Origin: Escherichia coli
GTDB taxonomy: Bacteria > Pseudomonadota > Gammaproteobacteria > Enterobacterales > Enterobacteriaceae
NCBI RefSeq assembly: GCF_044324875.1
Contig: NZ_CP172187.1
Direction: 5' to 3' (one strand)
DNA length: 64,000 nt
Shown piece after piece: positions 2,341 to 56,500 of the stretch (within the stretch, counting starts at the first letter, position 1; every line of letters starts with the position of its first letter). Below the pieces are notes generated by a model. The model saw only the letters and a list, made by a program, of their open reading frames with translations. It searched no databases and was not told the origin of the DNA. The position numbers were made by a program, and so were the translations under genes.

Positions 2341-2342
2341 CT

Positions 2343-3284: not shown

Positions 3285-3289
3285 ATTCT

Positions 3290-3650: not shown

Positions 3651-3667
3651 AAGAGAAGGAGGCTTTT

Positions 3668-7895: not shown

Positions 7896-8148
7896 TCCCG
7901 AAACTCAACGGGTGATGTTCTTTAAAAATCAGGATTTATTTCAGGCTCCGGCAATACGCATTTATGTGTTCTGTCAGTCATCCGGCTGGCAGGTAATGAG
8001 AACGCAGGAACAGAAGGAGGAAAACACCGGAGAACGTCAGACGCAGATATGAAAAAAGCAGGCCGGGGAGGACCTGCTTAATCCACACCGCAAAAACTGT
8101 TCGAGCAGTTTCTGCGGTTCCATTCAACAGTCATAAGGAGTTTCATTT

Positions 8149-8379
8149 ATGACGGTAAGTATTGTTTCACCTTCCGCAGCGGCTGTAAAGCCCCGCCGTC
8201 ATCCCCGTTTCAGACGCGAAGACATCCCCGCGCCGGAAATTGACCCCGTGCTGAAAGCCTTCGGGCGACACATAGCCCGGAGTTTTCACCGGGGGCGTGG
8301 TGTACACATCCCCGCCATGAAAAACACGGCCTTCGGGCAGGTGCTCCGCACACTCGAACTGAAACGCGCTTTTAACTGA
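8149..8379 (+). CDS. Hypothetical small basic protein (76 aa)
   Basis: ORF downstream of repeat B copy 1 with RBS AGGAG. Confidence 0.4.
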   Translation: MTVSIVSPSAAAVKPRRHPRFRREDIPAPEIDPVLKAFGRHIARSFHRGRGVHIPAMKNTAFGQVLRTLELKRAFN

Positions 8380-11960: not shown

Positions 11961-13862
11961 ATGCTGCCTGATGAACTTGAGAAAAGATTAGATGGAATTG
12001 AGGATGCTTCAAAAAAAGGGTATCCAGTACGTAATCTATACAAAATTGCGTGTGAGCCCGGACTGTGGCTGCAAGCCTACGTGAATATACGGGCCAATGC
12101 AGGTGCACTGACTCAAGGTGTATCAACAGATACCATTGATGGCTTTTCTATCGAAAGAGCAGAGAAGCTGGCAAAAACATTGCGGAGTAGAGAATACGTA
12201 GCGAAACCTGTACGCAGAGTTCAGATCCCAAAAAAGGACGGAAAAACCAGACCGCTGGGGATTCCAGGTGGAGACGATAAACTGGCGCAAGAAGTAGCAA
12301 GAATTATTCTGGAAAGGGTTTATGAACCAGTATTCTCTGAACACTCTCATGGATTCAGACCAAAACGTTCGTGTGAAACTGCGCTCAGATCTATTCGTCC
12401 AGTCTGGAACGGAGTTAAATGGATCGTGGATGTTGATATCAAAGGTTTCTTTGACAATATCCCCCACAAACTATTGCTGAATACACTGGCAGAGAAAATT
12501 AAGGATAAGAATTTCCTGAAATTAATCGAACAGTGGCTGAAGGCAGGATATGTGGACAATTGGAAATACCATCGCTCATATTCTGGCACGCCACAAGGTG
12601 GGATAATTTCTCCCTTACTGGCAAATATATACCTCGACAAACTGGACCGTTTTGTAGAACAGAATTTAATTCCTGCATATACAAGCGGTACAAAACGAAG
12701 AGCGAATCCAGATATGAACAGGCTGGCCCATAAGATTCATAAACTACGAAAGAAAGTAGACGGTATGGCAACTGATTCTGAATCAGAAAAAGAAGCCATA
12801 AAGAAAGAAATTGAACGACTGCTTGAAGAAAAACGTTCTATACCATCTCAGGTCATGAACGATCCAAACTTCAGGCGTATGTACTATGTTCGATATGCTG
12901 ATGACTTCGTAATCGGTGTCATCGGCTCGAAGAAAGATGCTGAACATATATCAAGACAGGTCAGAAACTTTATTACTACTTCACTGGGATTGGAAGTTAA
13001 TGAAGCAAAGACCAGGATCCGCCATATCTCAGAAGGAGTTAATTTTTTAGGCTATGAAATCAGACAGGCAGATGCAAAGAAATTGCTGAAGCAGAAAATG
13101 CAAGGGCGGCACGCTCTCCGGAGATCCACCACAGGAATTGTGCAGCTCTTCGTTCCTGACAATATAGCCGCTAAATTTTGTCACCAAAAGAAATATGGCT
13201 GTTATGAGAATGTGAAGGCTGTACATCGTTCAAGTCTACAAAATCTCAGTGAAGCTGAAATTGTTCTGACTTTCAACGCGGAAATGCGCGGATTGGCGAA
13301 CTACTACAGTCTGGCGCTGGACATGAAATATAAATTATCAAAATTATATTTCATATGGCAAATAAGCCTTTTTAAGACCCTGGCGAATAAACGACGTAGT
13401 TCAGTGAATAAAGTCGCCAAATCGCTACGGCAAAATAATGGAGATCTGGCTATTACCGTTCAGGCCAAAAATGGATCCCGAAAGATTGAGGTTTTCAAAC
13501 TCAAACATGTCAATCGCAACCGAACAACGATTGTCGATACGGAACCGAGAACCGCACATATCACAACCCGCACAACAGAGATCATGCGTCGATTAGGGGC
13601 AAGGATCTGCGAGTATTGTGCGAAGACTGGGCGCTGCGAAGTACATCATGTCAGAAAGCTAAAAGACCTGAAGAAAGGTCGTAAGGCCGGATATAAACCC
13701 AGCTTGTGGCAACTAATGATGATCGCACGCCGCCGGAAAACGATGATTTTGTGCGCAAGTTGCCACGACAAGTTACATAGCGGAAAACTACCCGATTTGA
13801 GACAGGAAAAGGGAAGAATACTCCTGCAACCACCTGTCTCAAGCGGGGATTCTGCTAAATGA
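11961..13862 (+). CDS. Group II intron-encoded protein: reverse transcriptase, maturase (X) and HNH endonuclease domains
   Basis: 633 aa with RT motifs (LGIPGGDDKLAQE, SHGFRPKRSCETAL, FFDNIPH, GTPQGGIISPLLANIYL, YVRYADDFVIGV) and a C-terminal Cys/His HNH-like cluster (CEYCAKTGRCEVHHV...CASCHDKLH). Confidence 0.9.
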   Translation: MLPDELEKRLDGIEDASKKGYPVRNLYKIACEPGLWLQAYVNIRANAGALTQGVSTDTIDGFSIERAEKLAKTLRSREYVAKPVRRVQIPKKDGKTRPLGIPGGDDKLAQEVARIILERVYEPVFSEHSHGFRPKRSCETALRSIRPVWNGVKWIVDVDIKGFFDNIPHKLLLNTLAEKIKDKNFLKLIEQWLKAGYVDNWKYHRSYSGTPQGGIISPLLANIYLDKLDRFVEQNLIPAYTSGTKRRANPDMNRLAHKIHKLRKKVDGMATDSESEKEAIKKEIERLLEEKRSIPSQVMNDPNFRRMYYVRYADDFVIGVIGSKKDAEHISRQVRNFITTSLGLEVNEAKTRIRHISEGVNFLGYEIRQADAKKLLKQKMQGRHALRRSTTGIVQLFVPDNIAAKFCHQKKYGCYENVKAVHRSSLQNLSEAEIVLTFNAEMRGLANYYSLALDMKYKLSKLYFIWQISLFKTLANKRRSSVNKVAKSLRQNNGDLAITVQAKNGSRKIEVFKLKHVNRNRTTIVDTEPRTAHITTRTTEIMRRLGARICEYCAKTGRCEVHHVRKLKDLKKGRKAGYKPSLWQLMMIARRRKTMILCASCHDKLHSGKLPDLRQEKGRILLQPPVSSGDSAK

Positions 13863-13888
13863 GTTTATCCCCAATAAGCTAGCAATGG

Positions 13889-13926
13889 AGAGCCGTATGC
13901 ACTGAAAGGTGCACGTACGGTTCGGA
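13889..13926 (+). ncRNA. Group II intron domain V (catalytic hairpin)
   Basis: Matches the conserved domain V consensus as I recall it (GAGCCGUAUGC...GCACGUACGGUUC), about 80 nt from the 3' splice site. Confidence 0.7.
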
Positions 13927-14008
13927 GGGGGGGTAACGGTGATCTAACTCAAGATAAGCAGGACATATTCGCCATTTATCTTGAAAGACCACACGTACCC
14001 TACCCTAC

Positions 14009-27986: not shown

Positions 27987-28498
27987 AACAGATTTCTTTA
28001 TTTATTCCTCTGCTGGGGACCTTATTACTTTCCGGCTGTGCCGGAACCAGTACGGAATTTGAGTGTAACGCCACCACATCCGATACCTGTATGACGATGG
28101 AGCAGGCCAATGAGAAGGCCAAAAAACTGGAGCAGTCCTCAGAAGCAAAGCCGGTTGCGGCATCACTGCCGCGCCTGGCTGAAGGGAACTTCCGGACAAT
28201 GCCGGTGCAGACCATTACCGCGACCACTCCGTCCGGCAGCAGACCTGCGGTGACAGCACATCCGGAGCAGAAACTGCTGGCACCACGCCCGCTGTTTACC
28301 GCTGCCCGGGAAGTGAAAACGGTTGTTCCGGTCAGTTCAGTTACGCCGGTAACACCTCCTCGTCCGCTAAGAACGGGTGAGCAGACGGCAGCATTATGGA
28401 TAGCGCCTTATATTGATAACCAGGATGTTTATCATCAGCCATCCAGCGTGTTTTTTGTTATTAAACCGTCTGCGTGGGGAAAGCCACGTATTAATTAA
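27983..28498 (+). CDS. traV: TraV lipoprotein
   Basis: 171 aa with lipobox LLLSGCAG. Confidence 0.85.
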   Translation: MKQISLFIPLLGTLLLSGCAGTSTEFECNATTSDTCMTMEQANEKAKKLEQSSEAKPVAASLPRLAEGNFRTMPVQTITATTPSGSRPAVTAHPEQKLLAPRPLFTAAREVKTVVPVSSVTPVTPPRPLRTGEQTAALWIAPYIDNQDVYHQPSSVFFVIKPSAWGKPRIN

Positions 28499-28632
28499 CT
28501 GGCCCTGAAGTTGTATATCAGCCGGCAATGTCGGCGGGCTTTCTGTATTCAAAATCTGCCTGTAAAACGAGTGCCCTGTGCGTGAAAAGGGATGGGCGGT
28601 AGCGTGTCAGAACATGTCGGGAGGAATATTCC

Positions 28633-28854
28633 GTGAGTGATGAAGCCGATGAAGCATATTCAGTGACAGAACAACTGACCATGACAGGAATAAACCTGAT
28701 ACGCCAGAAAATAAATGCTCATGGTATTCCTGTTTATCTCTGTGAAGCATGCGGAAATCCTATTCCGGAAGCCCGGCGGAAAATATTTCCCGGTGTGACG
28801 TTGTGCGTTGAATGTCAGGCGTATCAGGAAAGGCAGAGGAAACACTATGCATAA
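28633..28854 (+). CDS. traR: TraR (DksA/TraR-family zinc finger)
   Basis: 73 aa with CEACGNPIPEARRKIFPGVTLCVECQ. Confidence 0.85.
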   Translation: MSDEADEAYSVTEQLTMTGINLIRQKINAHGIPVYLCEACGNPIPEARRKIFPGVTLCVECQAYQERQRKHYA

Positions 28855-29320
28855 ATCAGAAGCTGAAAAAATAGATTCTATTCTGGATGAACATCAACAG
28901 ATATATCGCAGACATAACCGAATAGATAACATCCTGGCGTTTTGTGCGTGTATTGCATGGGTTCCCTGTATTATTGCTGCGTTCGGCGTTGATGGTATAT
29001 ATCTGAAAATACTGTTTGCGGTCCTTGCCTGCTGTGGTGCGGTATGCTTTTTTATTTTCTTCTTCACCCTCCTGCCGGAATCACTCATGGTCCTCAGCCG
29101 TCAGAGCCTGCTTCAGCTTATGCGTCTGACTGAAGACGTACCGGATGCGAGACAGGAACTGCTTAACCGTCTGCTGTCCGGTAAAAAACTGACTGGTCGG
29201 GATGAACAGGATATCCGGCGTCTCTGGCAGGAGAAAGTGGATGCAATGCAGGAGTCTGCCACCCGTCAGCGTGAACAGGATACTATTCGGAAGTTTACTG
29301 AAGGGAATAAATCCGAATGA
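28847..29320 (+). CDS. Hypothetical membrane protein, accessory ORF between traR and traC
   Basis: ORF-track frame 28808..29320; ATG at 28847 overlaps the traR stop; two predicted TM helices. Confidence 0.5.
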   Translation: MHKSEAEKIDSILDEHQQIYRRHNRIDNILAFCACIAWVPCIIAAFGVDGIYLKILFAVLACCGAVCFFIFFFTLLPESLMVLSRQSLLQLMRLTEDVPDARQELLNRLLSGKKLTGRDEQDIRRLWQEKVDAMQESATRQREQDTIRKFTEGNKSE

Positions 29321-29368
29321 GAATCTGCAGTGTTTTATGACCTCATAAGTTAACTGAAGGGATATTCA

Positions 29369-29614
29369 GTGATTAATATACAAGCGGAGATAATAAAGAA
29401 TGCATACCTTTATTTTTCTTGTGCTGATAAAAATATTAACGGTGGCGGAAGCTGGAATATTACACCCATGCCAAATACGGACGTATGCGTGCAGGTTCTT
29501 CGGACAATCGAGTCACACGGAGGCAGGGGATTTGGAAATACAGGGGAATGTATTGAAGTTAAAACAAATAAACCTTTGAACAACGTGATGGATACACTGA
29601 ATGGGGGGCAATGA
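29369..29614 (+). CDS. Hypothetical small protein (81 aa)
   Basis: AT-rich ORF between traR and traC. Confidence 0.4.
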   Translation: MINIQAEIIKNAYLYFSCADKNINGGGSWNITPMPNTDVCVQVLRTIESHGGRGFGNTGECIEVKTNKPLNNVMDTLNGGQ

Positions 29615-30004
29615 GTGCTTACTGCTTCAAAGGAAAATGAAATGAAGTCGATATATTTAGAATCTGTTCTGGCTTTTATATTTGTTGGCGTTATGGCTAT
29701 GTTGATATGTGGTCTTTTTTACAATGACTACCTTGAGCAACAACCTGCAACACCAGAACAACTGAGAGAGATTACACAGGATATCCCCTGTGCAGCAGAA
29801 GCATTTAAGGAAGCTATTAAGTCTGACACATCTGATTATCAGCCTGAACCTTTAAGTCTTGGTAAGGCAAAAGAGCTTGCATCAGCGTGTAGAGAAAGAA
29901 ACGAAATGGCAGAGGTGAAACGGGTAAGAGAAAATGAGCGCAATAAGATTCGCGAAAAACAAATTCAGGCATTAAATGATGCTCATTCAGTAAAGGAACG
30001 TTAA
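29615..30004 (+). CDS. Hypothetical protein with N-terminal TM segment (129 aa)
   Basis: AT-rich ORF; alternative start ATG at 29642. Confidence 0.45.
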   Translation: MLTASKENEMKSIYLESVLAFIFVGVMAMLICGLFYNDYLEQQPATPEQLREITQDIPCAAEAFKEAIKSDTSDYQPEPLSLGKAKELASACRERNEMAEVKRVRENERNKIREKQIQALNDAHSVKER

Positions 30005-30129
30005 TCCTGGTTTCCTGTTAAAAGCCTCCATCTCTTATTTGTGCTGTGGTTTCAGGAATGGCACTGCGTGATATATCCACGGCCACAGACTGATATTTTC
30101 CTTTTTTAAACGCACTAAGGAATACGCAT

Positions 30130-32760
30130 ATGAGTAATAACCCACTTGAGGCCGTCACTCAGGCGGTTAACTCCCTCGTCACAGCACTGAAACTGCCTGA
30201 CGAATCAGCAAAGGCCAATGAAGTGCTGGGCGAAATGAGCTTCCCGCAGTTCAGCCGTCTGCTGCCGTACCGTGATTACAACCAGGAATCCGGTCTGTTC
30301 ATGAATGACACCACGATGGGCTTTATGCTGGAAGCCATTCCCATCAATGGGGCGAATAAGTCCATTGTGGAGGCACTCGATCACATGCTGCGCACCAAAC
30401 TGCCGCGCGATATTCCGTTGTGTATCCATCTGATGTCCAGTCAGCTGGTTGGTGACAGGATTGAATACGGGCTGCGTGAGTTCTCCTGGTCAGGTGAACA
30501 GGCTGAACGGTTTAACGCCATTACCCGGGCCTATTATATGAAAGCGGCAGCGACACAGTTTCCGCTGCCGGAGGGGATGAATCTGGCCCTGACCCTGCGC
30601 CATTACCGGGTGTTTATCTCGTACTGTTCTCCTTCGAAGAAAAAAAGCCGGGCCGACATTCTGGAAATGGAAAACCTGGTGAAAATCATCCGGGCGTCGT
30701 TACAGGGGGCCAGTATCACCACACAGACGGTGGATGCACAGGCCTTTATCGATATTGTCGGGGAGATGATTAACCATAACCCGGACTCCCTGTACCCGAA
30801 AAGACGTCAGCTGGACCCGTATTCTGATCTGAATTATCAGTGTGTGGAGGACAGTTTTGATCTGAAAGTCCGGGCTGATTACCTGACGCTGGGCCTGCGT
30901 GAGAACGGCAGGAACAGCACGGCCCGCATCCTGAATTTCCATCTGGCCCGTAACCCGGAAATCGCCTTCCTGTGGAACATGGCCGACAACTACAGCAACC
31001 TGCTGAACCCGGAACTGTCCATCTCCTGTCCGTTCATCCTGACGCTGACTCTGGTGGTGGAAGACCAGGTGAAAACCCACAGCGAAGCCAACCTGAAGTA
31101 CATGGACCTGGAGAAAAAGTCGAAGACCTCCTATGCCAAATGGTTTCCGTCCGTGGAGAAAGAGGCGAAGGAGTGGGGGGAACTGCGTCAGCGGCTGGGC
31201 TCCGGTCAGTCCTCCGTGGTGTCCTACTTCCTCAACATCACAGCATTCTGCAAGGACAATAATGAAACGGCGCTGAAAGTGGAGCAGGACATCCTGAACA
31301 GCTTTCGTAAAAACGGTTTTGAGCTGATTTCACCGCGCTTTAACCACATGCGCAATTTCCTGACCTGCCTGCCCTTTATGGCCGGGAAAGGGCTGTTTAA
31401 ACAGCTGAAAGAGGCCGGAGTGGTTCAGCGCGCAGAGAGCTTTAATGTGGCCAACCTGATGCCGTTAGTGGCGGATAACCCCCTGACACCGGCAGGTCTG
31501 CTGGCACCCACCTACCGTAACCAGCTGGCGTTTATCGATATTTTCTTCCGGGGGATGAATAACACCAATTACAACATGGCGGTCTGTGGCACCTCCGGGG
31601 CCGGTAAAACCGGGCTGATACAGCCACTTATCCGCAGCGTGCTGGACTCCGGGGGCTTTGCCGTGGTGTTCGACATGGGGGATGGCTACAAGTCCCTGTG
31701 TGAGAACATGGGGGGCGTATATCTGGACGGTGAAACCCTGCGCTTTAACCCGTTTGCGAACATCACCGATATTGACCAGTCAGCGGAGCGTGTCCGCGAC
31801 CAGCTGTCGGTGATGGCCAGCCCCAACGGTAACCTGGATGAAGTGCATGAAGGTCTGCTGCTGCAGGCGGTCAGGGCATCATGGCTGGCCAAAGAGAACA
31901 GGGCTCGTATTGATGACGTGGTGGATTTCCTGAAAAACGCCAGTGACAGCGAGCAGTATGCCGGGTCACCGACTATCCGCAGCCGTCTGGACGAAATGAT
32001 TGTGCTGCTTGACCAGTACACTGCCAACGGCACTTACGGCCAGTATTTTAACTCTGATGAGCCGTCCCTGCGGGATGACGCAAAAATGGTGGTGCTGGAG
32101 CTGGGCGGACTGGAAGACCGTCCGTCACTGCTGGTTGCGGTGATGTTCTCCCTGATTATCTACATCGAGAACAGGATGTACCGCACGCCGCGTAACCTCA
32201 AGAAACTGAACGTTATTGATGAAGGCTGGCGTCTGCTGGACTTCAAAAATCACAAGGTCGGTGAATTTATTGAGAAAGGCTACCGTACGGCCCGCCGTCA
32301 TACCGGTGCCTATATCACCATCACACAGAACATCGTCGACTTTGACTCTGACAAGGCCTCCAGTGCTGCCCGCGCGGCATGGGGTAACTCCTCCTACAAA
32401 ATTATCCTCAGACAGAGTGCGAAGGAGTTCGCGAAATACAACCAGCTGTATCCGGACCAGTTCCAGCCACTGCAGCGCGACATGATTGGTAAGTTTGGTG
32501 CGGCCAAAGACCAGTGGTTCAGTTCCTTCCTGCTGCAGGTGGAAAACCATTCCTCCTGGCACCGCCTGTTTGTGGACCCGTTAAGCCGCGCCATGTACAG
32601 CTCTGACGGCCCGGATTTTGAGTTTGTGCAGCAGAAACGTAAAGAGGGGCTGAGTATTCATGAGGCGGTGTGGCAGCTGGCGTGGAAGAAGTCAGGGCCG
32701 GAGATGGCTTCGCTGGAAGCCTGGCTGGAAGAACATGAGAAATACAGGAGTGTTGCATGA
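30130..32760 (+). CDS. traC: TraC, VirB4-family type IV secretion ATPase
   Basis: 876 aa with Walker A GTSGAGKTG. Confidence 0.95.
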   Translation: MSNNPLEAVTQAVNSLVTALKLPDESAKANEVLGEMSFPQFSRLLPYRDYNQESGLFMNDTTMGFMLEAIPINGANKSIVEALDHMLRTKLPRDIPLCIHLMSSQLVGDRIEYGLREFSWSGEQAERFNAITRAYYMKAAATQFPLPEGMNLALTLRHYRVFISYCSPSKKKSRADILEMENLVKIIRASLQGASITTQTVDAQAFIDIVGEMINHNPDSLYPKRRQLDPYSDLNYQCVEDSFDLKVRADYLTLGLRENGRNSTARILNFHLARNPEIAFLWNMADNYSNLLNPELSISCPFILTLTLVVEDQVKTHSEANLKYMDLEKKSKTSYAKWFPSVEKEAKEWGELRQRLGSGQSSVVSYFLNITAFCKDNNETALKVEQDILNSFRKNGFELISPRFNHMRNFLTCLPFMAGKGLFKQLKEAGVVQRAESFNVANLMPLVADNPLTPAGLLAPTYRNQLAFIDIFFRGMNNTNYNMAVCGTSGAGKTGLIQPLIRSVLDSGGFAVVFDMGDGYKSLCENMGGVYLDGETLRFNPFANITDIDQSAERVRDQLSVMASPNGNLDEVHEGLLLQAVRASWLAKENRARIDDVVDFLKNASDSEQYAGSPTIRSRLDEMIVLLDQYTANGTYGQYFNSDEPSLRDDAKMVVLELGGLEDRPSLLVAVMFSLIIYIENRMYRTPRNLKKLNVIDEGWRLLDFKNHKVGEFIEKGYRTARRHTGAYITITQNIVDFDSDKASSAARAAWGNSSYKIILRQSAKEFAKYNQLYPDQFQPLQRDMIGKFGAAKDQWFSSFLLQVENHSSWHRLFVDPLSRAMYSSDGPDFEFVQQKRKEGLSIHEAVWQLAWKKSGPEMASLEAWLEEHEKYRSVA

Positions 32761-35163: not shown

Positions 35164-35685
35164 ATGGGATTTTTCTCGTTTTTACGAAAGATAAGTAATA
35201 AAGAAAAAGGGGTGGTTATCTATGAGAAGCAGTGGTTCTCACTGCTGGAAAAGGTGAGTGCTTTTGATGAGGTCAGACAATGGGCTGAAAGTAATGGTGG
35301 AGCATATTATCCTCTGCTGGAGTGTCGTCGGCTTACAGACAGTGAAGATGTCAGGAAATCAGAGGATATACTGAACCGACTGGAGTTTATTGACAGAAGA
35401 TTTCGGGAATTCATCAGCATTATGTCTGAACATATTAATAATGATAAAACTAAATCCATGTGGGAGAGGGAATTGTCTGAATATCCACCGGAAAAAATAT
35501 ACCAGGTCCGGAGAGAGGGAGAACATCTGTCATTAAAAAATTACGGTGATGATATTACTCTGAACAGAGATACCGCCGTGGCTACGGTGCAGATTACTGT
35601 CAGCAGAAAATGCATTACTCAGGAAGAAATGGATGAATTATATGCATTGTCTGAGAGACTGAAAGAAAAGTGCGCCGGTAATTAA
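35164..35685 (+). CDS. Hypothetical protein (173 aa), accessory ORF between traU and trbC
   Basis: AT-rich ORF; no recognised motif. Confidence 0.45.
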   Translation: MGFFSFLRKISNKEKGVVIYEKQWFSLLEKVSAFDEVRQWAESNGGAYYPLLECRRLTDSEDVRKSEDILNRLEFIDRRFREFISIMSEHINNDKTKSMWERELSEYPPEKIYQVRREGEHLSLKNYGDDITLNRDTAVATVQITVSRKCITQEEMDELYALSERLKEKCAGN

Positions 35686-36718: not shown

Positions 36719-36742
36719 ATCTGTTCCCGTAAGGAGGCATTG

Positions 36743-37165
36743 ATGGCGCTGACAAAGAAGCAGCGGGAAAAACTGCGTATGAAATTCGGCGGTCGTTGTG
36801 CGTACTGCGGCTGTGAACTGCCGGAAAAAGGCTGGCATGCCGACCATGTTCAGGCGGTGCTCCGCAAGTCAGAGCAGTGCATGAAGGCTGCAGAAAAGCG
36901 CATTTTCAGGCTGAAATCCACCGGTGATGTTTTCAGACCGGAGGCCGACTGTCCGGAAAACCTCGTCCCGGCCTGTGCGCCGTGCAACCTGCTGAAAACA
37001 ACATATTCGCTGGAGATGTTCAGAACGCAGGTGTCCCTGCAGGTTGAACGGGGGCGAAGAAGCAGCGTGAATTTCAGGACCGCAGAACGGTTCGGGCTGA
37101 TTCAGGTGGTGAACAAACCAGTCGTGTTCTGGTTTGAGCAATATCAGAGGGAGAGTGAGGTATGA
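36743..37165 (+). CDS. HNH endonuclease
   Basis: CAYCGCEL...HADHV...CAPCNLLK motif set; ATG at 36743 follows AAGGAGG. Confidence 0.75.
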   Translation: MALTKKQREKLRMKFGGRCAYCGCELPEKGWHADHVQAVLRKSEQCMKAAEKRIFRLKSTGDVFRPEADCPENLVPACAPCNLLKTTYSLEMFRTQVSLQVERGRRSSVNFRTAERFGLIQVVNKPVVFWFEQYQRESEV

Positions 37166-43614: not shown

Positions 43615-46433
43615 ATGAAGTTTATGTGATTGCCGGTGGTGAGTGGTTGCGGAATAACCTGAATGCCATTGCCGCCTTTATGGGAACCAGAACGTGGGAT
43701 TCCATTGAAAAAATTGCGCTCACATTGTCTGTTCTCGCGGTGGCCGTAATGTGGGTACAGCGGCACAACGTGATGGATTTGCTGGGCTGGGTGGCCGTGT
43801 TTGTGCTTATCAGCCTGCTGGTTAATGTCCGTACATCGGTGCAGATTATTGATAACAGTGACCTGGTCAAAGTTCACCGGGTGGATAATGTGCCGGTCGG
43901 ACTGGCGATGCCACTTTCACTGACGACCCGTATCGGGCATGCAATGGTGGCCAGTTACGAGATGATCTTCACGCAACCGGACAGTGTCACCTACAGCAAA
44001 ACGGGGATGCTGTTTGGCGCAGAACTGGTATCAAAAAGCACCGACTTTTTGTCCCGTAATCCGGAAATCGCCAATCTTTTCCAGGATTATGTGCAGAACT
44101 GCGTGATGGGGGATATTTACCTGAACCACAAATATACGCTGGAGGAGCTGATGGCCTCCGCTGATCCCTACACGCTGATTTTTTCCCGCCCCAGCCCGCT
44201 GCGGGGCGTTTATGACAGCAATAATAATTTCGTAACCTGTAAGGACGCTTCGGTTTCGCTGAAAGACAAGCTGAATCTGGACACACAGAGTGGCGGAAAA
44301 ACCTGGCATTATTATGCCCAGCAGCTATTTGGCGGACGCCCTGATCCTAACCTGCTGTTCAGTACGCTGATTGGCGACAGTTACAGTTACTTCTATGGCT
44401 CAAGTAAATCAGCCAGCCAGATCATCCGCCAGAATGTCACCATCAATGCGCTGAAGGAGGGGATCACCAGTTATGCCGCACGTAATGGTGATTCGGCCAG
44501 CCTGGTGAATCTGGCCACCACGTCATCGATGGAGAAACAACGTCTGGCACATGTATCAATCGGTCATGTGGCGATGCGGACACTGCCCATGACGCAGACC
44601 ATCCTGACGGGGATCGCCATCGGTATTTTCCCGCTCCTGGTACTGGCGGCTGTATTCAACAAACTGACGCTGTCCGTCCTGAAAGGCTATGTGTTTGCCC
44701 TGATGTGGTTGCAGTCATGGCCAATGTTGTACGCCATTCTGAACAGCGCCATGACATTTTATGCAAAGCAGAATGGTGCACCGGTGGTGCTCTCGGAAAT
44801 TTCACAGATACAGCTGAAATACTCCGATCTGGCTTCCACTGCCGGGTATCTTTCCATGATGATCCCGCCATTATCCTGGATGATGGTCAGGGGGCTCGGG
44901 GCAGGATTTTCCAGTGTGTACAGCCATTTCGCTTCCTCTGCTATCAGCCCGACCGCCAGTGCAGCAGGCAGTGTGGTTGACGGTAATTACTCCTACGGCA
45001 ACATGCAGACGGAGAACGTGAACGGCTTCAGCTGGAGCACCAACAGCACCACGTCGTTTGGTCAGATGATGTACCAGACCGGCAGTGGCGCAACTGCCAC
45101 ACAGACCCGTGACGGTAATATGGTGATGGATGCAAGCGGAGCGATGTCCCGGTTACCGGTCGGCATCAATGCAACGCGTCAGATTGCGGCGGCACAACAG
45201 GAAATGGCCCGGGAAGCATCGAACAGAGCAGAAAGTGCCCTGCATGGGTTCAGCAGCAGTATTGCCAGTGCCTGGAACACGCTCAGTCAGTTTGGTTCTA
45301 ACCGGGGGAGCAGTGATTCTGTCACCGGTGGCGCTGACAGTACGATGAGCGCACAGGACTCCATGATGGCCAGCCGTATGCGCAGTGCAGTGGAAAGCTA
45401 TGCGAAGGCGCATAATATCAGTAATGAGCAGGCGACTCAGGAACTGGCATCCAGAAGTACGAGAGCTTCTGCCGGGATGTATGGAGATGCTCATGCTGAA
45501 TGGGGGGTTAAACCTAAAATTCTTGGTGTTGGTGGAGGATTAGGTGTTAAAGGTGGTGGTCGCGCTGGTATTGATTGGGAAGATAATGATGCGCATACGG
45601 CAAGTAGTAATACTCAGTCGAGCCATAATGCTCGTCATGATATCGATGCCAGAGCTACACAAGACTTTAAAGAGGCCAGCGATTACTTTACCAGTCGCAA
45701 GGTCAGTGAGTCCGGCAGCCATACTGACAATAATGCTGATTCCCGTGTGGATCAGTTGTCTGCAGCCCTGAACTCAGCAAAACAGAGTTACGACCAGTTC
45801 ACGACGAATATGACCCGCAGCCATGAATATGCTGAAATGGCATCCCGTACTGAAAGCATGAGTGGGCAGATGAGTGAAGACCTGTCGCAACAGTTTGCAC
45901 AGTATGTGATGAAACACGCGCCGCAGGATGCCGAAGCTATTCTGACAAACACCAGTTCACCGGAGATTGCAGAACGCCGTCGGGCTATGGCGTGGTCTTT
46001 TGTTCAGGAACAGGTGCAGCCTGGTGTTGATAATGCCTGGCGTGAATCCCGTGGGGACATCGGTAAAGGAATGGAGAGCGTACCTTCGGGTGGTGGCAGC
46101 CAGGATATTATTGCTGATCATCAGGGGCATCAGGCCATTATTGAGCAAAGAACGCAGGACAGTAATATCCGTAATGATGTAAAACATCAGGTTGATAATA
46201 TGGTCACAGAATACCGAGGCAATATCGGAGATACTCAGAGCAGCATACGTGGCGAAGAAAATATTGTAGGAAGACAGTATTCTGAACTACAAAATCACCA
46301 TAAAACAGAGGCATTATCTCAGAATAATAAATATAATGAAGAAAAATCGGGTCAGGAAAGAATGCCCGGGGCTGACAGTCCACAGGAACTGATGAAAAGA
46401 GCAAAGGAGTATCAGGATAAGCACAAGCAATAA
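43611..46433 (+). CDS. traG: TraG, mating-pair stabilisation and entry-exclusion determinant
   Basis: 940-aa polytopic membrane protein. Confidence 0.9.
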   Translation: MNEVYVIAGGEWLRNNLNAIAAFMGTRTWDSIEKIALTLSVLAVAVMWVQRHNVMDLLGWVAVFVLISLLVNVRTSVQIIDNSDLVKVHRVDNVPVGLAMPLSLTTRIGHAMVASYEMIFTQPDSVTYSKTGMLFGAELVSKSTDFLSRNPEIANLFQDYVQNCVMGDIYLNHKYTLEELMASADPYTLIFSRPSPLRGVYDSNNNFVTCKDASVSLKDKLNLDTQSGGKTWHYYAQQLFGGRPDPNLLFSTLIGDSYSYFYGSSKSASQIIRQNVTINALKEGITSYAARNGDSASLVNLATTSSMEKQRLAHVSIGHVAMRTLPMTQTILTGIAIGIFPLLVLAAVFNKLTLSVLKGYVFALMWLQSWPMLYAILNSAMTFYAKQNGAPVVLSEISQIQLKYSDLASTAGYLSMMIPPLSWMMVRGLGAGFSSVYSHFASSAISPTASAAGSVVDGNYSYGNMQTENVNGFSWSTNSTTSFGQMMYQTGSGATATQTRDGNMVMDASGAMSRLPVGINATRQIAAAQQEMAREASNRAESALHGFSSSIASAWNTLSQFGSNRGSSDSVTGGADSTMSAQDSMMASRMRSAVESYAKAHNISNEQATQELASRSTRASAGMYGDAHAEWGVKPKILGVGGGLGVKGGGRAGIDWEDNDAHTASSNTQSSHNARHDIDARATQDFKEASDYFTSRKVSESGSHTDNNADSRVDQLSAALNSAKQSYDQFTTNMTRSHEYAEMASRTESMSGQMSEDLSQQFAQYVMKHAPQDAEAILTNTSSPEIAERRRAMAWSFVQEQVQPGVDNAWRESRGDIGKGMESVPSGGGSQDIIADHQGHQAIIEQRTQDSNIRNDVKHQVDNMVTEYRGNIGDTQSSIRGEENIVGRQYSELQNHHKTEALSQNNKYNEEKSGQERMPGADSPQELMKRAKEYQDKHKQ

Positions 46434-46435
46434 TA

Positions 46436-46933
46436 TTGTATGGGGAGATGATAATGAGATGTTTAACCCATATTGCTCTGGTAACGGTGATACAGTTTAT
46501 CGCCTGTTATCTGGCTGGTTGGGGGAATGCCGAAACAATTTTTATGCTGTTCTTCATAGTACTATGGCAGGGACTGTTTATATGGTTGTTCTCTCAAATA
46601 CGAAAAAAACGGAATGTGTCGGATGAGTTTAAGTTTAGTAAAGGCGTTTGGTATATAACGATGCCAGTATCTTCCTTACTCTCTCCATTATTAAGCCTGA
46701 TGGTTTTTATCATTGGTACACTATACGAATTAAGGCGAGTTAGTGGTTGTGTAAGTGTAAGAGAATGGATGCAATCTCAGGTAAATGAACAAACTAATGA
46801 AGATTTGCATCTGGATTTTGATAATATGGATTTTCATCGTACTAATCCTGCAACAGGGTTACCTATGTCAGGTATTGGTGTGGATATCGGCGGTAATTCA
46901 TATGGTTATAGTTCAAAACGATATGATGAGTGA
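46436..46933 (+). CDS. traS: TraS, entry exclusion
   Basis: 165-aa AT-rich membrane protein between traG and traT. Confidence 0.75.
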   Translation: MYGEMIMRCLTHIALVTVIQFIACYLAGWGNAETIFMLFFIVLWQGLFIWLFSQIRKKRNVSDEFKFSKGVWYITMPVSSLLSPLLSLMVFIIGTLYELRRVSGCVSVREWMQSQVNEQTNEDLHLDFDNMDFHRTNPATGLPMSGIGVDIGGNSYGYSSKRYDE

Positions 46934-46978
46934 ATCTTAATTTGTATATTATGACGTTTTATTCAATATGAAGGAACA

Positions 46979-47713
46979 TTGATGAAAATGAAAAAATTGA
47001 TGATGGTTGCACTGGTCAGTTCCACTCTGGCCCTTTCAGGGTGTGGTGCGATGAGCACAGCAATCAAGAAGCGTAACCTTGAGGTGAAGACTCAGATGAG
47101 TGAGACCATCTGGCTTGAACCCGCCAGCGAACGCACGGTATTTCTGCAGATCAAAAACACGTCTGATAAAGACATGAGTGGGCTGCAGGGTAAAATTGCT
47201 GATGCTGTGAAAGCAAAAGGATATCAGGTGGTGACTTCTCCGGATAAAGCCTACTACTGGATTCAGGCGAATGTGCTGAAGGCCGATAAGATGGATCTGC
47301 GGGAGTCTCAGGGATGGCTGAACCGTGGTTATGAAGGCGCAGCTGTTGGTGCAGCGTTAGGTGCCGGTATTACCGGCTATAACTCAAATTCTGCCGGTGC
47401 CACACTCGGTGTAGGCCTTGCTGCTGGTCTGGTGGGTATGGCTGCAGATGCGATGGTGGAAGATGTGAACTATACCATGATCACGGATGTGCAGATTGCA
47501 GAGCGTACTAAGGCAACGGTGACAACGGATAATGTTGCCGCCCTGCGTCAGGGCACATCAGGTGCGAAAATTCAGACCAGTACTGAAACAGGTAACCAGC
47601 ATAAATACCAGACCCGTGTGGTCTCAAATGCGAACAAGGTTAACCTGAAATTTGAAGAGGCGAAGCCTGTTCTCGAAGACCAGCTGGCCAAATCAATCGC
47701 AAATATTCTCTGA
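46979..47713 (+). CDS. traT: TraT, surface exclusion lipoprotein
   Basis: 244 aa with lipobox LALSGCGA; matches F TraT from memory. Confidence 0.95.
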
Positions 47714-47915
47714 ACCTCGTCAGGAGGCTGATCTGACCGGCCTCCTTGCTGACGCCTCGCGTTGCTCGTTGTCCAACCCCGGGATGTAACAAAATAAATT
47801 TTGTCACCTCCCGGCGTTTCCGAAATAAATATGAAAACACTGAGCGGTTGTGCAAATTCTTTGTGCGACCGTGAAGTGTTGCCGGCGAAGCCGGGATCTT
47901 CCGGAGAAAGTCATT

Positions 47916-48704
47916 ATGACATCAGACAATATCGCTGAATATGTTGGTGAGAATAATCAATTTACTGAGAAGCCTGTAACTGAATACCCCCCGGTGATAC
48001 AGGATAATACAGTGACCACTAAAGACTATCTGTACAGCAATAATATTGATACTGACCTTTTAGTGGTTATCGGAGGGCTTATTGTTATATTGTTTCTCAT
48101 GATGCTTATCATGTACTTTATTAATTCTCTCAGGCATAAGGAATTAACTGAAATACTGACAAAAATATCTTTTCCTGAAAAATCCGGGAGCAATTCGCTT
48201 AAACCGGAAGCGGTCAGCTGTAATTTGTTGTCCCTGTGTGTGCTGGCACCGGTATTCTGTACACCCAAAAAGCTGGCTGAAGTTTCCAGGGAGATCATCG
48301 TGGCGAGTGCGCAGGAGATTGCATGGACGCCGGGGAGCAGTCGTATTGATGGTCATCAGGGCGAAAATATTACCTGGTCTCTGTCGTCACAGTCTCATGC
48401 CGATAAATACGAGCTCATCAATAAAACGTCCCGTGTTTCTCCTGACAGTGGCCGTTTTTATGAACCGGACACAGTTCTGGATCACCGTGAACGGGTACGC
48501 CTTTTTATTCAGATCCAGTTTCCGCATGGGAGTGACTGGTCTGAAGTATTGCGCCTGACTGACATTGTTGCAGAGAAGGTCTCTTCCGGCAGGACTGCAG
48601 GTGCGTATTCCGCTCTATTCGATCACGGATTGGCATCGAAGTCCGATCAGCGATTCGCATCCATTCGATCAACCGGGAACTTAACTTTTTCTACCGCTTT
48701 TTAA
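47916..48704 (+). CDS. Hypothetical single-pass membrane protein (262 aa) inserted between traT and traD; 3' end runs into the IS terminal repeats
   Basis: ORF-track frame 47850..48704; ATG at 47916; TM helix LLVVIGGLIVILFLMMLIMYFI; the last ~30 codons overlap the IS21-type terminal repeats beginning at about 48602. Confidence 0.5.
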   Translation: MTSDNIAEYVGENNQFTEKPVTEYPPVIQDNTVTTKDYLYSNNIDTDLLVVIGGLIVILFLMMLIMYFINSLRHKELTEILTKISFPEKSGSNSLKPEAVSCNLLSLCVLAPVFCTPKKLAEVSREIIVASAQEIAWTPGSSRIDGHQGENITWSLSSQSHADKYELINKTSRVSPDSGRFYEPDTVLDHRERVRLFIQIQFPHGSDWSEVLRLTDIVAEKVSSGRTAGAYSALFDHGLASKSDQRFASIRSTGNLTFSTAF

Positions 48705-49456
48705 CGCGTTTTTTCGCTGCTTTCCACTACCGGGGGATTTTTCCTCAGTGACTCTCCCTGAAGGACCACTCGGTGTGAGTTATGTACCAGTCTGTCCAGG
48801 ATGGCATCTGCTGTTGTTGGGTTCTCCATCAGACCATGCCATTTATCTACCGGGAACTGGCTTACCACTATCGTGCTGCTTTGTCCGTAACGATCCTCTA
48901 TGAGCTCCAGAAGGTCATTACACTGGGCGTTACTTAACTGTTCCAGCCCCAGATCGTCCAGGATTAGAACCTGTATTTTTTGCAACTGTTTCAGATATTT
49001 CAGCCAGCTGCCATCAACACGTCCCTGAGCCAGTTGTTCCAGTAATCGCCCGGTTCTACAGTACCGGACGCTGTGTTTCTGTCGACATGCCTGTTCGCCC
49101 AGCGCATTGGCTATCCAGCTCTTGCCACATCCTGTCGGACCGGTTATCAGCAGGTTTTTCCTGTGGGTTATGTAGTGGCCGTTCAGCAGTTCTCTCATCT
49201 GTTCAGCCCGCAGACCTCTTGAGGCCGGATAGCGCAGCCCTTCCGGTGTTGCCTGGTATTTCAGGCCGGCATTTTTTCTCAACCGTGCCACACGGCTGTT
49301 TTCCCTGCTCAGAAGCTCGTCATCAACCAGCAGCGTCAGCCTTTCCTCGAACGACAGTTCGTCGTAGGTCTGAGGCGTTTCCCGCTGCCGTATCAGGCTC
49401 CCGGCCATCGCCGGGAGTTTCAGTTGGGTCAGTTTGTTTAACAGGTTATCACTCAT
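48701..49456 (-). CDS. istB: IstB-like AAA+ ATPase transposition helper
   Basis: ORF-track frame 48701..49699; internal start MSDNLL...; Walker A GPTGCGKSW and Walker B LILDDLG. Confidence 0.8.
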   Translation of the reverse strand: MSDNLLNKLTQLKLPAMAGSLIRQRETPQTYDELSFEERLTLLVDDELLSRENSRVARLRKNAGLKYQATPEGLRYPASRGLRAEQMRELLNGHYITHRKNLLITGPTGCGKSWIANALGEQACRQKHSVRYCRTGRLLEQLAQGRVDGSWLKYLKQLQKIQVLILDDLGLEQLSNAQCNDLLELIEDRYGQSSTIVVSQFPVDKWHGLMENPTTADAILDRLVHNSHRVVLQGESLRKNPPVVESSEKTR

Positions 49457-49472
49457 ACTGTTGTTCCTTCTG

Positions 49473-51119
49473 TCAGTGGTAGTAGCCCGGACCACGCAGG
49501 TTTTCATGCTCTGAAGCATATGCCGGATGTTGTTCGCCCTGGCGGGATAATGGAAGCTCCAGGTTCTCCCGATGGTGACGCAGCAGATTGTCGATAAAGC
49601 GTCTGTCAGGGGCGTTATAGTGCAGGGCAACGTAACAGGCCTTTTCCAGCCGTTCCGGGCCGTATTTTTTCTGAAGTGCCAGCAGCCCCAGAACTGCACG
49701 ATAAGCCAGTTCCGGATGGGGTTTTGCCTTCAGCATGGATTCAACCACCCGGCCTGTGGACGGGCCCGTACGTTTTCCCTGCTCGATCAGGCGTTCCGGT
49801 GTCCATGTCCCGTGCTGCCGGTGGCGCTCTGGCATGTGAAGCGGATTGGTTGTGTGTTTATATTCATGTGTGCTGCGCGGATGTTGCGCCACACACTGCC
49901 CCTTGTGCCAGAGCTGTACCACCGACTGCCCCGCCTTCAGTGACAGACGCTGACCGACCAGTTCGTGTGGAACGGAGTACCAGTGACGGGCATATTCAAC
50001 GTGGTAGTCAGGGCCAACCTTCACAGCTTTGTATTCCGTGTATTCATAAGGTGCCAGAGGCAGCGGAGAGAGTGCTGGCGCATCCAGTATGCGGAAGCGT
50101 TCTGCACGGGTTTGATTGCCGTACCCCTTCATTGGCCGGTTATTCATGTCTGTCAGTAACTCCCTAAGGCGCGCATTCAGCGCCCTGAGCGTGTGGAAGG
50201 TTTCATTACGGATGCGGGCAAGAAGCCATCGTTCAACGATGAGGACGCCGTTTTCTGCTTTTGGTTTATCTTTAGGTTTGCGTGGTCGGGCCGGGATGAT
50301 AACCGTGCCATAGTGCTCAGCCAGTGCCTGATAACTGTCGTTGATGACAGGCTCATATCGATCGGCCTTTTTCACTGCGCTTCTGAGGTTATCGGGGATG
50401 AGCAGCTTCGGTACGCCGCCCAGGAAGGTCAGGCAACGGCTGTGGGCATTTAACCATGACATCATGTCCTGACCTTCGCACGCTTCAACGTAGGTATAGT
50501 TGGACGCCCCCATTACGGCCACGAAGATTGCCACGCGGCGTATCTCACCGGTGTCCGGATTAATAACAGGAACCGTAGGACCACAGAAGTCGATAAAAAG
50601 CTTTTCGCCGGCACGATGCTCCTGGCGCATGGAGAGACGTCGCGTTTTTTTCCACTCCCGGTAGCAACGGCAGAAGTGCGAGTATCCCATCGCTTTGTTA
50701 CCCGCCTGTGCCTTGTATTCCATCCACAACAGTTGCCGCGTCACACCTGGTTTTCTCATTTCCGTATCGAAGTACAACATGTCAGGCATTACAAGCTCTG
50801 ATGCAAAGGTGTCTTTGGGCGGAAAAATGAGTTTCTCCAGCGTGTCATGGGATATATCAGCAGGTAATGGCCATGACAGAGAAGAGGCTTTGAAGCGGGC
50901 AAGAACCTCAAAAACGGTTGAGGCGCTGATGTGTAACGTCAGTCCGATACAACGGTTAGTCAGCTTCTTGTCGAACTTGAGCTGAAGGATCTTAAAACAG
51001 GTTTCCATAGTGCTCCTGGATTTTCTCTTTCTGGACATTGACGTCTCCACTGGTTTAAACACGGCAATGGAGACTGTGGTGAAAAGAGTTAATTCCCGGA
51101 GTGACTGGCAGGATGCCAA
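49473..51119 (-). CDS. istA: IstA-like transposase (start uncertain)
   Basis: 548-aa ORF whose 3' end overlaps istB; HTH-like N-terminus; two-gene arrangement diagnostic of the IS21 family. Confidence 0.75.
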   Translation of the reverse strand: MASCQSLRELTLFTTVSIAVFKPVETSMSRKRKSRSTMETCFKILQLKFDKKLTNRCIGLTLHISASTVFEVLARFKASSLSWPLPADISHDTLEKLIFPPKDTFASELVMPDMLYFDTEMRKPGVTRQLLWMEYKAQAGNKAMGYSHFCRCYREWKKTRRLSMRQEHRAGEKLFIDFCGPTVPVINPDTGEIRRVAIFVAVMGASNYTYVEACEGQDMMSWLNAHSRCLTFLGGVPKLLIPDNLRSAVKKADRYEPVINDSYQALAEHYGTVIIPARPRKPKDKPKAENGVLIVERWLLARIRNETFHTLRALNARLRELLTDMNNRPMKGYGNQTRAERFRILDAPALSPLPLAPYEYTEYKAVKVGPDYHVEYARHWYSVPHELVGQRLSLKAGQSVVQLWHKGQCVAQHPRSTHEYKHTTNPLHMPERHRQHGTWTPERLIEQGKRTGPSTGRVVESMLKAKPHPELAYRAVLGLLALQKKYGPERLEKACYVALHYNAPDRRFIDNLLRHHRENLELPLSRQGEQHPAYASEHENLRGPGYYH

Positions 51120-53546: not shown

Positions 53547-56500
53547 TGTTGAGTTTTAGCGTTGTTAAATCGGCAGGCAGTGCCGGAAACTATTACACCG
53601 ACAAGGATAATTACTATGTGCTGGGTAGCATGGGAGAACGCTGGGCCGGTCAGGGGGCTGAACAGCTTGGGCTGCAGGGCAGCGTCGATAAGGATGTTTT
53701 TACCCGTCTTCTGGAGGGCAGGCTGCCGGACGGGGCGGATTTAAGCCGCATGCAGGATGGCAGTAATAAGCATCGTCCCGGCTACGACCTGACCTTCTCC
53801 GCCCCCAAAAGTGTCTCCATGATGGCCATGCTCGGGGGGGATAAACGTCTTATTGATGCACATAACCAGGCTGTGGATTTTGCTGTCCGTCAGGTGGAGG
53901 CGCTGGCTTCCACACGGGTGATGACGGACGGACAGTCAGAAACGGTGCTGACCGGTAATCTGGTGATGGCACTGTTTAACCATGACACCAGTCGCGATCA
54001 GGACCCACAGTTACACACGCATGTGGTGGTGGCTAATGTCACGCAGCATAACGGCGAGTGGAAGACACTGAGCAGTGACAAAGTGGGGAAAACCGGATTT
54101 TCCGAGAACGTGCTCGCGAACCGGATTGCGTTCGGGAAAATATATCAGAGTGAGTTACGTCAGCGCGTTGAGGCGCTGGGTTATGAAACCGAAGTGGTCG
54201 GTAAGCACGGTATGTGGGAGATGCCGGGCGTACCGGTGGAGGCCTTTTCCGGACGCTCACAGGCTATCCGGGAGGCCGTCGGGGAAGATGCCTCGCTGAA
54301 ATCCCGGGATGTGGCGGCACTGGATACGCGAAAATCCAAACAGCACGTCGATCCGGAAATCAGAATGGCTGAATGGATGCAGACGCTGAAGGAAACCGGG
54401 TTCGACATCCGGGCATATCGTGACGCGGCGGATCAGCGTGCGGAGACCCGCACGCAGGCGCCCGGGGCTGTTTCACAGGAGGGGCCGGATGTGCAGCAGG
54501 CGGTGACACAGGCCATTGCCGGATTAAGTGAACGAAAAGTGCAGTTCACGTATACGGACGTGCTGGCCAGGACGGTCGGCATACTGCCGCCGGAAAATGG
54601 TGTGATTGAACGGGCACGCGCCGGTATCGATGAGGCCATCAGCCGTGAGCAGCTTGTCCCCCTCGATCGTGAGAAGGGGCTGTTCACGTCCGGGATTCAT
54701 GTGCTCGATGAGCTGTCAGTCCGGGCACTCAGTCGTGACATCATGAAACAGAACCGGGTGACCGTACATCCGGAGAAAAGTGTCCCCCGGACGGCCGGTT
54801 ACAGCGATGCCGTCAGTGTTCTGGCACAGGATCGCCCGTCGCTGGCCATTGTGTCCGGGCAGGGCGGTGCAGCCGGGCAGCGTGAGCGGGTGGCTGAACT
54901 GGTCATGATGGCCCGGGAGCAGGGGCGGGAGGTGCAGATTATCGCTGCTGACCGTCGCTCGCAGATGAACCTGAAGCAGGATGAACGGCTGTCCGGTGAG
55001 CTGATAACCGGACGTCGTCAGCTGCAGGAGGGCATGGTCTTCACGCCGGGCAGTACCGTTATCGTTGACCAGGGCGAAAAACTCTCCCTGAAAGAGACGT
55101 TAACCCTGCTGGACGGTGCCGCACGTCATAACGTACAGGTCCTGATAACCGACAGCGGGCAGCGAACCGGTACAGGCAGTGCGCTGATGGCCATGAAGGA
55201 TGCCGGGGTGAACACGTATCGCTGGCAGGGCGGAGAACAGCGACCGGCCACCATCATCAGTGAACCGGACCGGAATGTCCGCTATGACCGGCTGGCCGGA
55301 GATTTTGCGGCCAGCGTGAAAGCCGGAGAAGAGAGCGTGGCACAGGTCAGCGGGGTACGGGAACAGGCCATACTGACACAGGCCATTCGCAGTGAGCTGA
55401 AAACACAGGGCGTGCTCGGACACCCGGAGGTGACCATGACCGCCCTGTCACCGGTCTGGCTGGACAGCCGGAGCCGTTATCTGCGGGATATGTACCGACC
55501 GGGGATGGTGATGGAGCAGTGGAACCCGGAGACACGCAGTCATGACCGCTATGTTATCGACCGGGTGACGGCGCAGAGTCACAGCCTGACCCTGCGGGAT
55601 GCGCAGGGCGAAACGCAGGTGGTGCGTATTTCCTCCCTGGACAGCAGCTGGTCGCTGTTCCGGCCGGAAAAAATGCCGGTGGCAGACGGCGAGCGACTGA
55701 GGGTGACAGGGAAAATTCCCGGACTCCGCGTCTCCGGCGGTGACCGCCTGCAGGTGGCATCCGTCAGTGAAGATGCGATGACGGTTGTTGTGCCGGGGCG
55801 GGCTGAACCGGCCACCCTGCCTGTGGCTGATTCACCGTTCACGGCACTGAAGCTGGAGAACGGCTGGGTGGAAACGCCCGGGCATTCCGTCAGCGACAGT
55901 GCGAAGGTTTTTGCCTCCGTCACACAGATGGCAATGGACAACGCCACCCTGAACGGTCTGGCCCGCAGTGGTCGTGATGTCCGGCTGTATTCTTCACTGG
56001 ATGAAACCCGTACTGCGGAAAAACTTGCCCGCCATCCCTCCTTTACGGTGGTTTCTGAGCAGATAAAGGCGCGTGCCGGTGAGACATTGCTGGAAACCGC
56101 TATCAGTCTGCAGAAAGCCGGGCTTCACACGCCGGCACAGCAGGCTATTCATCTGGCCCTTCCTGTGCTGGAAAGTAAAAACCTGGCCTTCAGCATGGTG
56201 GACCTGCTGACAGAGGCGAAGTCGTTTGCTGCAGAAGGAACCAGTTTTACTGAACTGGGAGGGGAAATCAATGCGCAGATAAAACGCGGTGATTTACTGT
56301 ATGTGGATGTGGCAAAAGGCTATGGCACAGGCCTGCTGGTTTCCCGTGCGTCGTATGAGGCAGAAAAGAGCATTCTTCGCCATATTCTCGAAGGTAAGGA
56401 GGCGGTCACGCCGCTGATGGAGAGAGTACCTGGCGAACTCATGGAGAAACTGACATCAGGACAGCGTGCCGCCACCCGCATGATACTGGAAACGTCCGAC

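Follow-up and report, generated by a model that had tools for sequence, protein, structure and literature searches.

What are the three small open reading frames (ORFs) that separate traR from traC in an Escherichia coli F-like plasmid, and what might they do there? We addressed this question in a 64,000-nucleotide stretch of contig NZ_CP172187.1 (hereafter, the window), which carries a complete F-like transfer region (IncF, with a MOBF/MPF_F tra operon). Over positions 28600–30150, it matches the E. coli plasmid pTB-nb3 (NZ_CP033634; typed as IncFIA, MOBF, and MPF_F) at 100% identity. An initial annotation had read the locus as two membrane proteins and an 81-amino-acid protein, AT-rich and accessory to the core assembly genes, with a possible influence on exclusion, pilus function, or phage sensitivity. 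Gene order and protein similarity now identify the ORFs, almost certainly, as the R100-type yfiA–yfiB–yfiC cassette of the F-like tra operon.

The yfi cassette and its R100 counterpart

In R100 (NR1), the order of genes is traR–yfhA–yfiA–yfiB–yfiC–traC, with the four intervening ORFs encoding 137, 157, 72, and 115 amino acids (yfhA being the name of the ORF that follows traR; PMC2762410). The window presents yfiA, yfiB, and yfiC in this same order, on one strand and between traR and traC, and all three products resemble those of R100: YfiA is 96.8% identical, YfiB—once its reading frame is repaired—93%, and YfiC about 77–79%, with an in-frame indel. Three differences set the window apart, namely the lack of a yfhA duplicate, a 1-bp deletion in yfiB, and a 120-amino-acid YfiC variant with a five-residue insertion relative to the 115-amino-acid R100 form. 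In R100-type plasmids, the yfi genes have long been annotated as hypothetical ORFs and are thus already known. ‘YfiC protein’ is a UniRef name, all sources annotate the products as hypothetical, and our literature search on yfhA/yfiA/yfiB/yfiC, yafA, and the traR–traC interval found no functional study. Only the distribution across plasmids and the rapid evolution of the YfiA/YafA family (see below) are modestly new. The locus comprises the following features:

28633–28854, plus strand: traR, 73 amino acids, DksA/TraR zinc-finger family; from the ORF list, and named traR in the pTB-nb3 record
28847–29320, plus strand: yfiA (ORF1), 157 amino acids; labelled yfiA in LC744515
29369–29614, plus strand: ORF2 of the initial annotation, 81 amino acids, GTG start; a composite frame
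29400–29614, plus strand: frameshifted yfiB, native start ATG 29400; from alignment with homologues
29429–29433, plus strand: A5 run, site of the 1-bp deletion; A6 in intact alleles
29642–30004, plus strand: yfiC, 120 amino acids; start as called by the Prokaryotic Genome Annotation Pipeline (PGAP) in pTB-nb3
30005–30129, plus strand: spacer 5′ of traC; from alignment with the F traR–traC spacer

Three same-strand ORFs fill the traR–traC gap at the coordinates first assigned to them, with one likely amendment: ORF3 was listed as 29615–30004, and its true start is likely the ATG at 29642, which has an AAGGA 8 nt upstream. The last ~35 nt of the spacer that follows are common to plasmid F and include the traC ribosome-binding site. 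The claim that the block is AT-rich relative to its flanks holds on the traC side, where 42.4% GC across 28855–30129 compares with 52.1% for the window and 54–59% for traC, trbI, and traW, and where GC content at third codon positions is 0.29 in yfiC versus 0.69 in traC. It fails on the left, where AT content is just as high in traR (45% GC) and trbG (42%), and where yfiA (46.6%) is similar to traR.

Within 28400–30300, promoter-like sites were absent from either strand (3.9 expected by chance), and the single terminator-like match (29954–29939, minus strand) lay within chance expectation; an Rfam scan gave no match inside the yfi block. With no promoter-like site and no convincing terminator of their own, the yfi genes would ride on the tra transcript. 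Moreover, the yfiA start codon overlaps the traR stop codon (ATGcaTAA), an arrangement which argues that translation of yfiA is probably coupled to that of traR. Database entries of 222–229 amino acids, in which the TraR zinc-finger domain is fused to YfiA, probably represent frameshift or annotation artefacts at this same overlap.

A comparison across plasmids indicated that these are shared ORF families rather than chance ORFs: roughly 1,200 plasmids carry them, frames are kept across in-frame indels, and the ratio of nonsynonymous to synonymous substitution rates (dN/dS; pairwise Nei–Gojobori) falls below 1. At least 80% of 28600–30150 is covered in 1,170 of the 3,549 traR-matching plasmids. 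Most of the others match over traR and the final 79 nt ahead of traC only, and about two thirds of traR-positive plasmids run from traR to traC without these ORFs. In plasmid F, the gap shrinks to 160 bp, starts with ATGCATAAGTCAG..., and encodes a 34-codon stub whose first ~24 residues align with YfiA/YfhA, arguing that F is a deletion derivative. On these alignments, the classic F traR–traC junction is a deletion scar: the ancestor of the F/R100 group already had the cassette, and F-type plasmids have since deleted it. The F stub (MHKSVAEHSDLIPDEHEWIFRKQK...) lies directly after traR, at 3575–3680 of the compared F locus.

The cassette is not shared by all F-type systems, F being one that lacks it, and by this comparison is an optional accessory outside the core tra operon. 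Its accessory status, as first proposed, is further borne out by sets that differ between lineages, with four-ORF, three-ORF, two-ORF, and yfiA-only versions. In R100, yfhA is a tandem duplicate of yfiA whose 3′ end repeats the C-terminal codons of TraR (..QRKHYA); the duplication spans 2699–3578 of the compared R100 locus. Many three-ORF plasmids possess a recombinant yfhA/yfiA chimera, and pSLT-like plasmids combine yfiA with an unrelated 87-amino-acid ORF in the slot. Klebsiella IncFII(K) plasmids have no traR; their slot contains six small ORFs, most of them for membrane proteins and one of them yfiB. In Klebsiella pneumoniae CP072202, for instance, six small ORFs occupy the traV–traC slot (1792–3969 in compared-locus coordinates), among them yfiB, a paralogous pair with a shared ‘HWKNDC...’ motif, and two multi-pass membrane proteins.

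The frameshift in yfiB

Homologues of yfiB start at an ATG equivalent to position 29400 and encode 72 amino acids (MHTFIFLVLIKNINGGGSWNITPMPNTDVC...). When the window was aligned with LC744515, CP088574 (E. coli), and CP072202 (Klebsiella), it proved to have A5 at 29429–29433, one A short of A6. The frame opened by ATG 29400 ends at 29579 after 59 codons, so that the window holds no intact 72-codon yfiB frame from the conserved ATG; insertion of one A restores a 71-amino-acid YfiB. The 81-amino-acid ORF consists of a 21-codon, non-conserved leader starting at GTG 29369 and the last 60 yfiB codons, joined by the frameshift. In other plasmids, the frame opened by GTG 29369 runs for only 23 codons; the Klebsiella version lacks this GTG. 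PGAP calls no coding sequence (CDS) at yfiB in the identical record, nor in other A5 records. Contrary to the initial annotation, the 81-amino-acid protein is, on this alignment, a frameshift artefact rather than the product of a native gene, and should be annotated as frameshifted yfiB.

An AlphaFold2 model of YfiB (predicted local distance difference test [pLDDT] score 78) has a beta-beta-alpha-beta-alpha order, in which residues 2–13, the stretch removed by the frameshift, form strand beta1. Since the lost N-terminus corresponds to this strand, the altered product is unlikely to fold, and the sequence of the window copy marks it as probably a pseudogene, inactivated by the 1-bp deletion. 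The model suggests that intact YfiB is a small soluble alpha/beta protein. Hydropathy analysis of the 81-amino-acid ORF predicted no transmembrane segment. Export of YfiB via a signal peptide was disfavoured as well, its hydrophobic stretch spanning only ~8–9 residues and being modelled as beta1 (pLDDT 87).

Could the frameshift be spurious, stemming from a homopolymer sequencing error, or be bypassed by a −1 slip of tRNA-Lys on A-AAA-A that restores ...LIKNINGGG...? The break does lie inside a homopolymer, and there are records in which this indel is the sole difference from the window (312 versus 311 nt, 99.7% identity). The A5 allele also occurs on slightly different backgrounds, and, judged from sequence, a −1 slip after the AAA codon would yield exactly the native protein. 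However, the exact A5 73-mer recurs in 101 independent plasmid records from several species (compared with 847 for the exact A6 74-mer and ~1,205 carriers), and the NCBI pipeline, as noted, calls no CDS. A run of five A residues is, besides, short for efficient transcriptional or translational slippage. Taken together, we consider an error or bypass very unlikely.

YfiA, YfiC and their relatives

Both other ORFs are supported as membrane proteins at the level of prediction, as originally proposed. Hydropathy analysis found two hydrophobic segments in ORF1 (within approximately residues 25–84) and one N-terminal segment in ORF3 (within approximately residues 1–31). YfiA begins with a conserved motif (MHKSxAEKIDxILDEH), followed by two variable, Cys-rich transmembrane helices separated by a loop of ~4 residues. 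After this hairpin come two short helices and a long charged helix with a near-invariant LLNRLLSGKKLTGRDE motif; the pattern of the cytoplasmic domain reads LSRQ..L..LTED.PD.RQELLNRLLSGKKLTGRDE.DIRRLW. An AlphaFold2 model of YfiA is all-helical (pLDDT 76). The charge distribution suggests that both ends are cytoplasmic (N-in/C-in), and the model that YfiA is a two-helix hairpin protein of the inner membrane with a conserved three-helix cytoplasmic domain.

The N-terminal anchor of YfiC is flanked by lysines and leads into an acidic linker; the protein further has two conserved cysteines and a C-terminal helix that is highly charged. These features are suggestive of a single-pass membrane protein with a small, helical, periplasmic domain that contains the cysteine pair. 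Identical YfiC sequences are found on 750 contigs, and the length variants stay in frame. A lipoprotein assignment was rejected, given that Ile or Val precedes the conserved Cys23 and that there is no lipobox.

To what extent are these proteins confined to F-like plasmids? A YfiA profile search of 1.84 billion representative proteins yielded 109 clusters, and even distant members retain the same layout, that is, the N-terminal motif, the hairpin, and a C-terminal RLLSGK.LTGRDE domain. This family is unnamed and absent from Pfam and NCBIfam. By tblastn, it is present in 3,017 plasmid records, 97% of which are predicted to be conjugative. In divergent F-type operons, its members immediately follow traR; in VirB-type operons, they are flanked by an RfaH/NusG-like gene and virB1. 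IncI1/K plasmids carry them downstream of the FinO-domain gene yafB/fopA, in IncI2 they stand alone next to hicAB, and one member lies in a region resembling an integrative and conjugative element (ICE). YafA of IncI1/IncK plasmids (R64, ColIb-P9, pCol1B9) is 41% identical to YfiA (E = 1e-33) and has in common with it the N-terminal motif, the two-helix hairpin, and a C-terminal LLNRL.SGK..TGRDE domain. Unlike yfiA, yafA—a gene of unknown function (PMC7491321)—lies outside transfer operons, near the replicon and next to a gene for a FinO-domain RNA-binding protein, and its product has a longer C-terminal tail. Deletion data from IncX3 (PMC11880322) were judged not transferable; nothing in the plasmid collection closely matches the VirB-type relative.

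YfiA-type genes thus repeatedly stand right after a gene for a small RNA polymerase- or RNA-binding regulator (TraR, an RfaH/NusG-like protein, or FopA). In an ambitious and improbable reading, YfiA/YafA would be an unrecognised, fast-evolving, membrane-tethered backbone family of enterobacterial conjugative elements (IncF, IncI1/K, IncI2, RfaH-activated VirB-type, and ICE-like) that tethers or gates the adjacent regulator or mediates conflict between plasmids or between plasmid and host.

These genomic contexts also bear on whether the Yfi proteins are lineage-specific helpers of F-type secretion or of the pilus which, like the non-essential TraP, TrbD, TrbG, and TrbI, would tune or stabilise the assembly process, be it at the inner membrane or within the periplasm. 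Such a role would fit the location within the pilus-assembly block between traV/traR and traC, the two predicted membrane proteins, the detection of yfiB and yfiC homologues only in the traV–traC slot of F-like plasmids (including Klebsiella IncFII(K)), and the small membrane ORFs which that slot gathers in several lineages. However, the yfi genes are missing from F and most F-like plasmids, yfiB is broken in ~8% of carriers (the window included), and YfiA relatives accompany unrelated mating systems or reside outside transfer operons. Relatives in IncI1/K and IncI2 that are encoded outside F-type pilus operons, in particular, disfavour an F-pilus-specific role for YfiA. On balance, we regard pilus helpers as unlikely.

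Selection, candidate functions and known systems

Selection acts unevenly across the neighbourhood. With dN/dS values of 0.13–0.23, yfiB is the most constrained of the three yfi genes and comparable to traR (0.14). Values for yfiA range from 0.4 to 0.8 over the whole gene, with 0.2–0.5 in the C-terminal domain, about 0.5 at the N-terminus, and about 1.1–1.2 in the transmembrane hairpin (yfiA versus yfhA types), while the overall yfiC range is 0.45–0.83, with the membrane anchor at about 1.2. In operons whose TraC shares 85–90% identity with that of the window, identity drops to 63–84% for TraR and 25–51% for YfiA; by this measure, YfiA is the fastest-evolving gene of the neighbourhood.

Might the cassette be a decaying remnant that no longer serves any function in this plasmid? 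The yfiC values, that of its anchor included, would agree with decay, as would the deletion of the cassette from F-type plasmids and the yfiB frameshift, seen here and in 101 records. Yet, intact yfiB is under strong purifying selection, the C-terminal motif of YfiA is kept from IncF to IncI2 and ICE-like elements, exact YfiC copies abound, and yfiC variants preserve the frame. Decay therefore appears decidedly unlikely.

Database searches pointed to no function. Scans of the three window proteins against Pfam, NCBIfam, PADLOC, and PHROGs returned sub-threshold noise only (neither a PADLOC defence model nor a PHROGs phage family matched significantly), and the same was true of a Pfam scan of 18 YfiB homologues and nine distant YfiA relatives. 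YfiA and YfiB found nothing by tblastn against 50,697 phage records, nor did YfiA and YfiC in a profile search against PDB sequences; fold searches produced generic matches, not taken as functional leads. BLASTP against all window ORFs, TraS and TraT included, revealed no related ORF. A weak match of YfiA to the TraI C-terminus (33% over 60 residues) was rejected as gappy charged-helix similarity.

How, then, does a function in conflict or specificity fare, be it entry or surface exclusion, blocking the transfer of rival plasmids, or phage sensitivity? The divergence of YfiA against a conserved TraC is suggestive only; further indications are the elevated dN/dS of the hairpin, the presence/absence polymorphism of the cassette, the tandem duplication of yfhA and yfiA, and the chimeric alleles. 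Against this, a dN/dS near 1 in membrane helices equally fits relaxed constraint, the periplasmic loop of YfiA is merely ~4 residues long, and PADLOC, PHROGs, and the phage collection gave no support. The products have no TraS/TraT similarity and their genes do not follow traG, and exclusion specificity in F-like plasmids maps to traS, traT, and traG. Likewise, derepressed R100-1 and R1-19, which carry the yfi genes, are standard hosts of male-specific phages. We consequently view a conflict function as unlikely, on a par with pilus assistance.

As a whole, the explanation that accounts best for these observations, and which we put forward tentatively at somewhat below even confidence, is an R100-type accessory cassette of donor-cell modulators. 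Lying in sense orientation inside the long tra transcript, the yfi genes would be expressed only while the transfer genes are on, and their products would adjust plasmid regulation or the physiology of the host or envelope rather than serve as structural parts of the type IV secretion system. The modulator role in itself is possible, if doubtful. Within this scheme, the structural model makes YfiA most likely a membrane-tethered adaptor that would act at the cytoplasmic face on a cytoplasmic partner. F is transfer-proficient without the yfi genes; by analogy, all three are very probably dispensable for pilus synthesis and DNA transfer.

Several points weigh against the modulator scheme. No records of yfiA, yfiB, or yfiC expression were found, and the topology and localisation of the Yfi proteins are predictions. 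Both yfiB and yfiC were detected solely in F-type operons, and a pilus-related role for these two is possible. The fast divergence of YfiA, moreover, fits a conflict function as well as it fits a modulator.

What is at stake depends on which of these roles applies. In E. coli, Shigella, Salmonella, and Klebsiella, resistance and virulence genes are carried mainly by F-like plasmids, and about a third of the traR-positive ones carry the cassette. As mere tuners of donor physiology, the yfi genes would be a footnote; a YfiA that acts with TraR or in plasmid competition, on the other hand, would give a well-studied operon a further level of regulation or conflict and would explain the variability of the traR–traC slot.

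Elsewhere in the window, an IS21-family insertion sequence (IS) element (48701–51119, minus strand) sits between traT (46979–47713) and traD, encoding istA (548 amino acids; rve and Mu-transposase C-terminal domains) and istB (332 amino acids; IstB_IS21, E = 2e-60). The traD gene itself appears intact, and the insertion could exert a polar effect on expression of traD and traI. A 284-amino-acid ORF between traT and this element (47850–48704, plus strand) lacks a Pfam/NCBIfam match and may be spurious or IS-associated. Between traU and trbC lies a second AT-rich accessory ORF (35164–35685, plus strand; 173 amino acids, 40% GC), also without a Pfam/NCBIfam match; the corresponding slot of R100 harbors a different hypothetical ORF of 101 amino acids. 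Between trbC and traN, a 141-amino-acid ORF (36740–37165, plus strand) matched nothing but HNH endonucleases, in each case below threshold (Pfam, E = 0.0018; retron-type HNH, E = 2e-4). Across 11961–14008 (plus strand), a 633-amino-acid ORF precedes a match to the Rfam group II intron model (RF00029, 13888–14008), an indication that the leading region may hold such an intron. Rfam further identified minus-strand antisense RNAs (AS-pc01, 8053–8154; AS-traG, 44330–44415; AS-traI, 56395–56471; and AS-pc02, 60437–60620) along with FinP, the traJ 5′ UTR, two sok RNAs, and CopA, a small-RNA set that is usual for IncFII-type plasmids.

Among known transfer proteins, TraS resembles YfiA in being a small, hydrophobic, and fast-diverging protein of the inner membrane. 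The two differ, however, in that neither TraS nor TraT has sequence similarity to YfiA, that traS and traT follow traG (approximately 46436–47713 in the window), and that YfiA has almost no periplasmic exposure. A second comparison concerns TraP, TrbD, TrbG, TrbI, TrbE, TrbA, and TraR of F, small and often membrane-associated proteins that are co-transcribed with the pilus genes yet not needed for transfer. Although these show no similarity to the Yfi proteins, and F has no yfi genes, it is this small, membrane-associated, co-transcribed, and dispensable character that the predicted yfi products appear to have in common with them.

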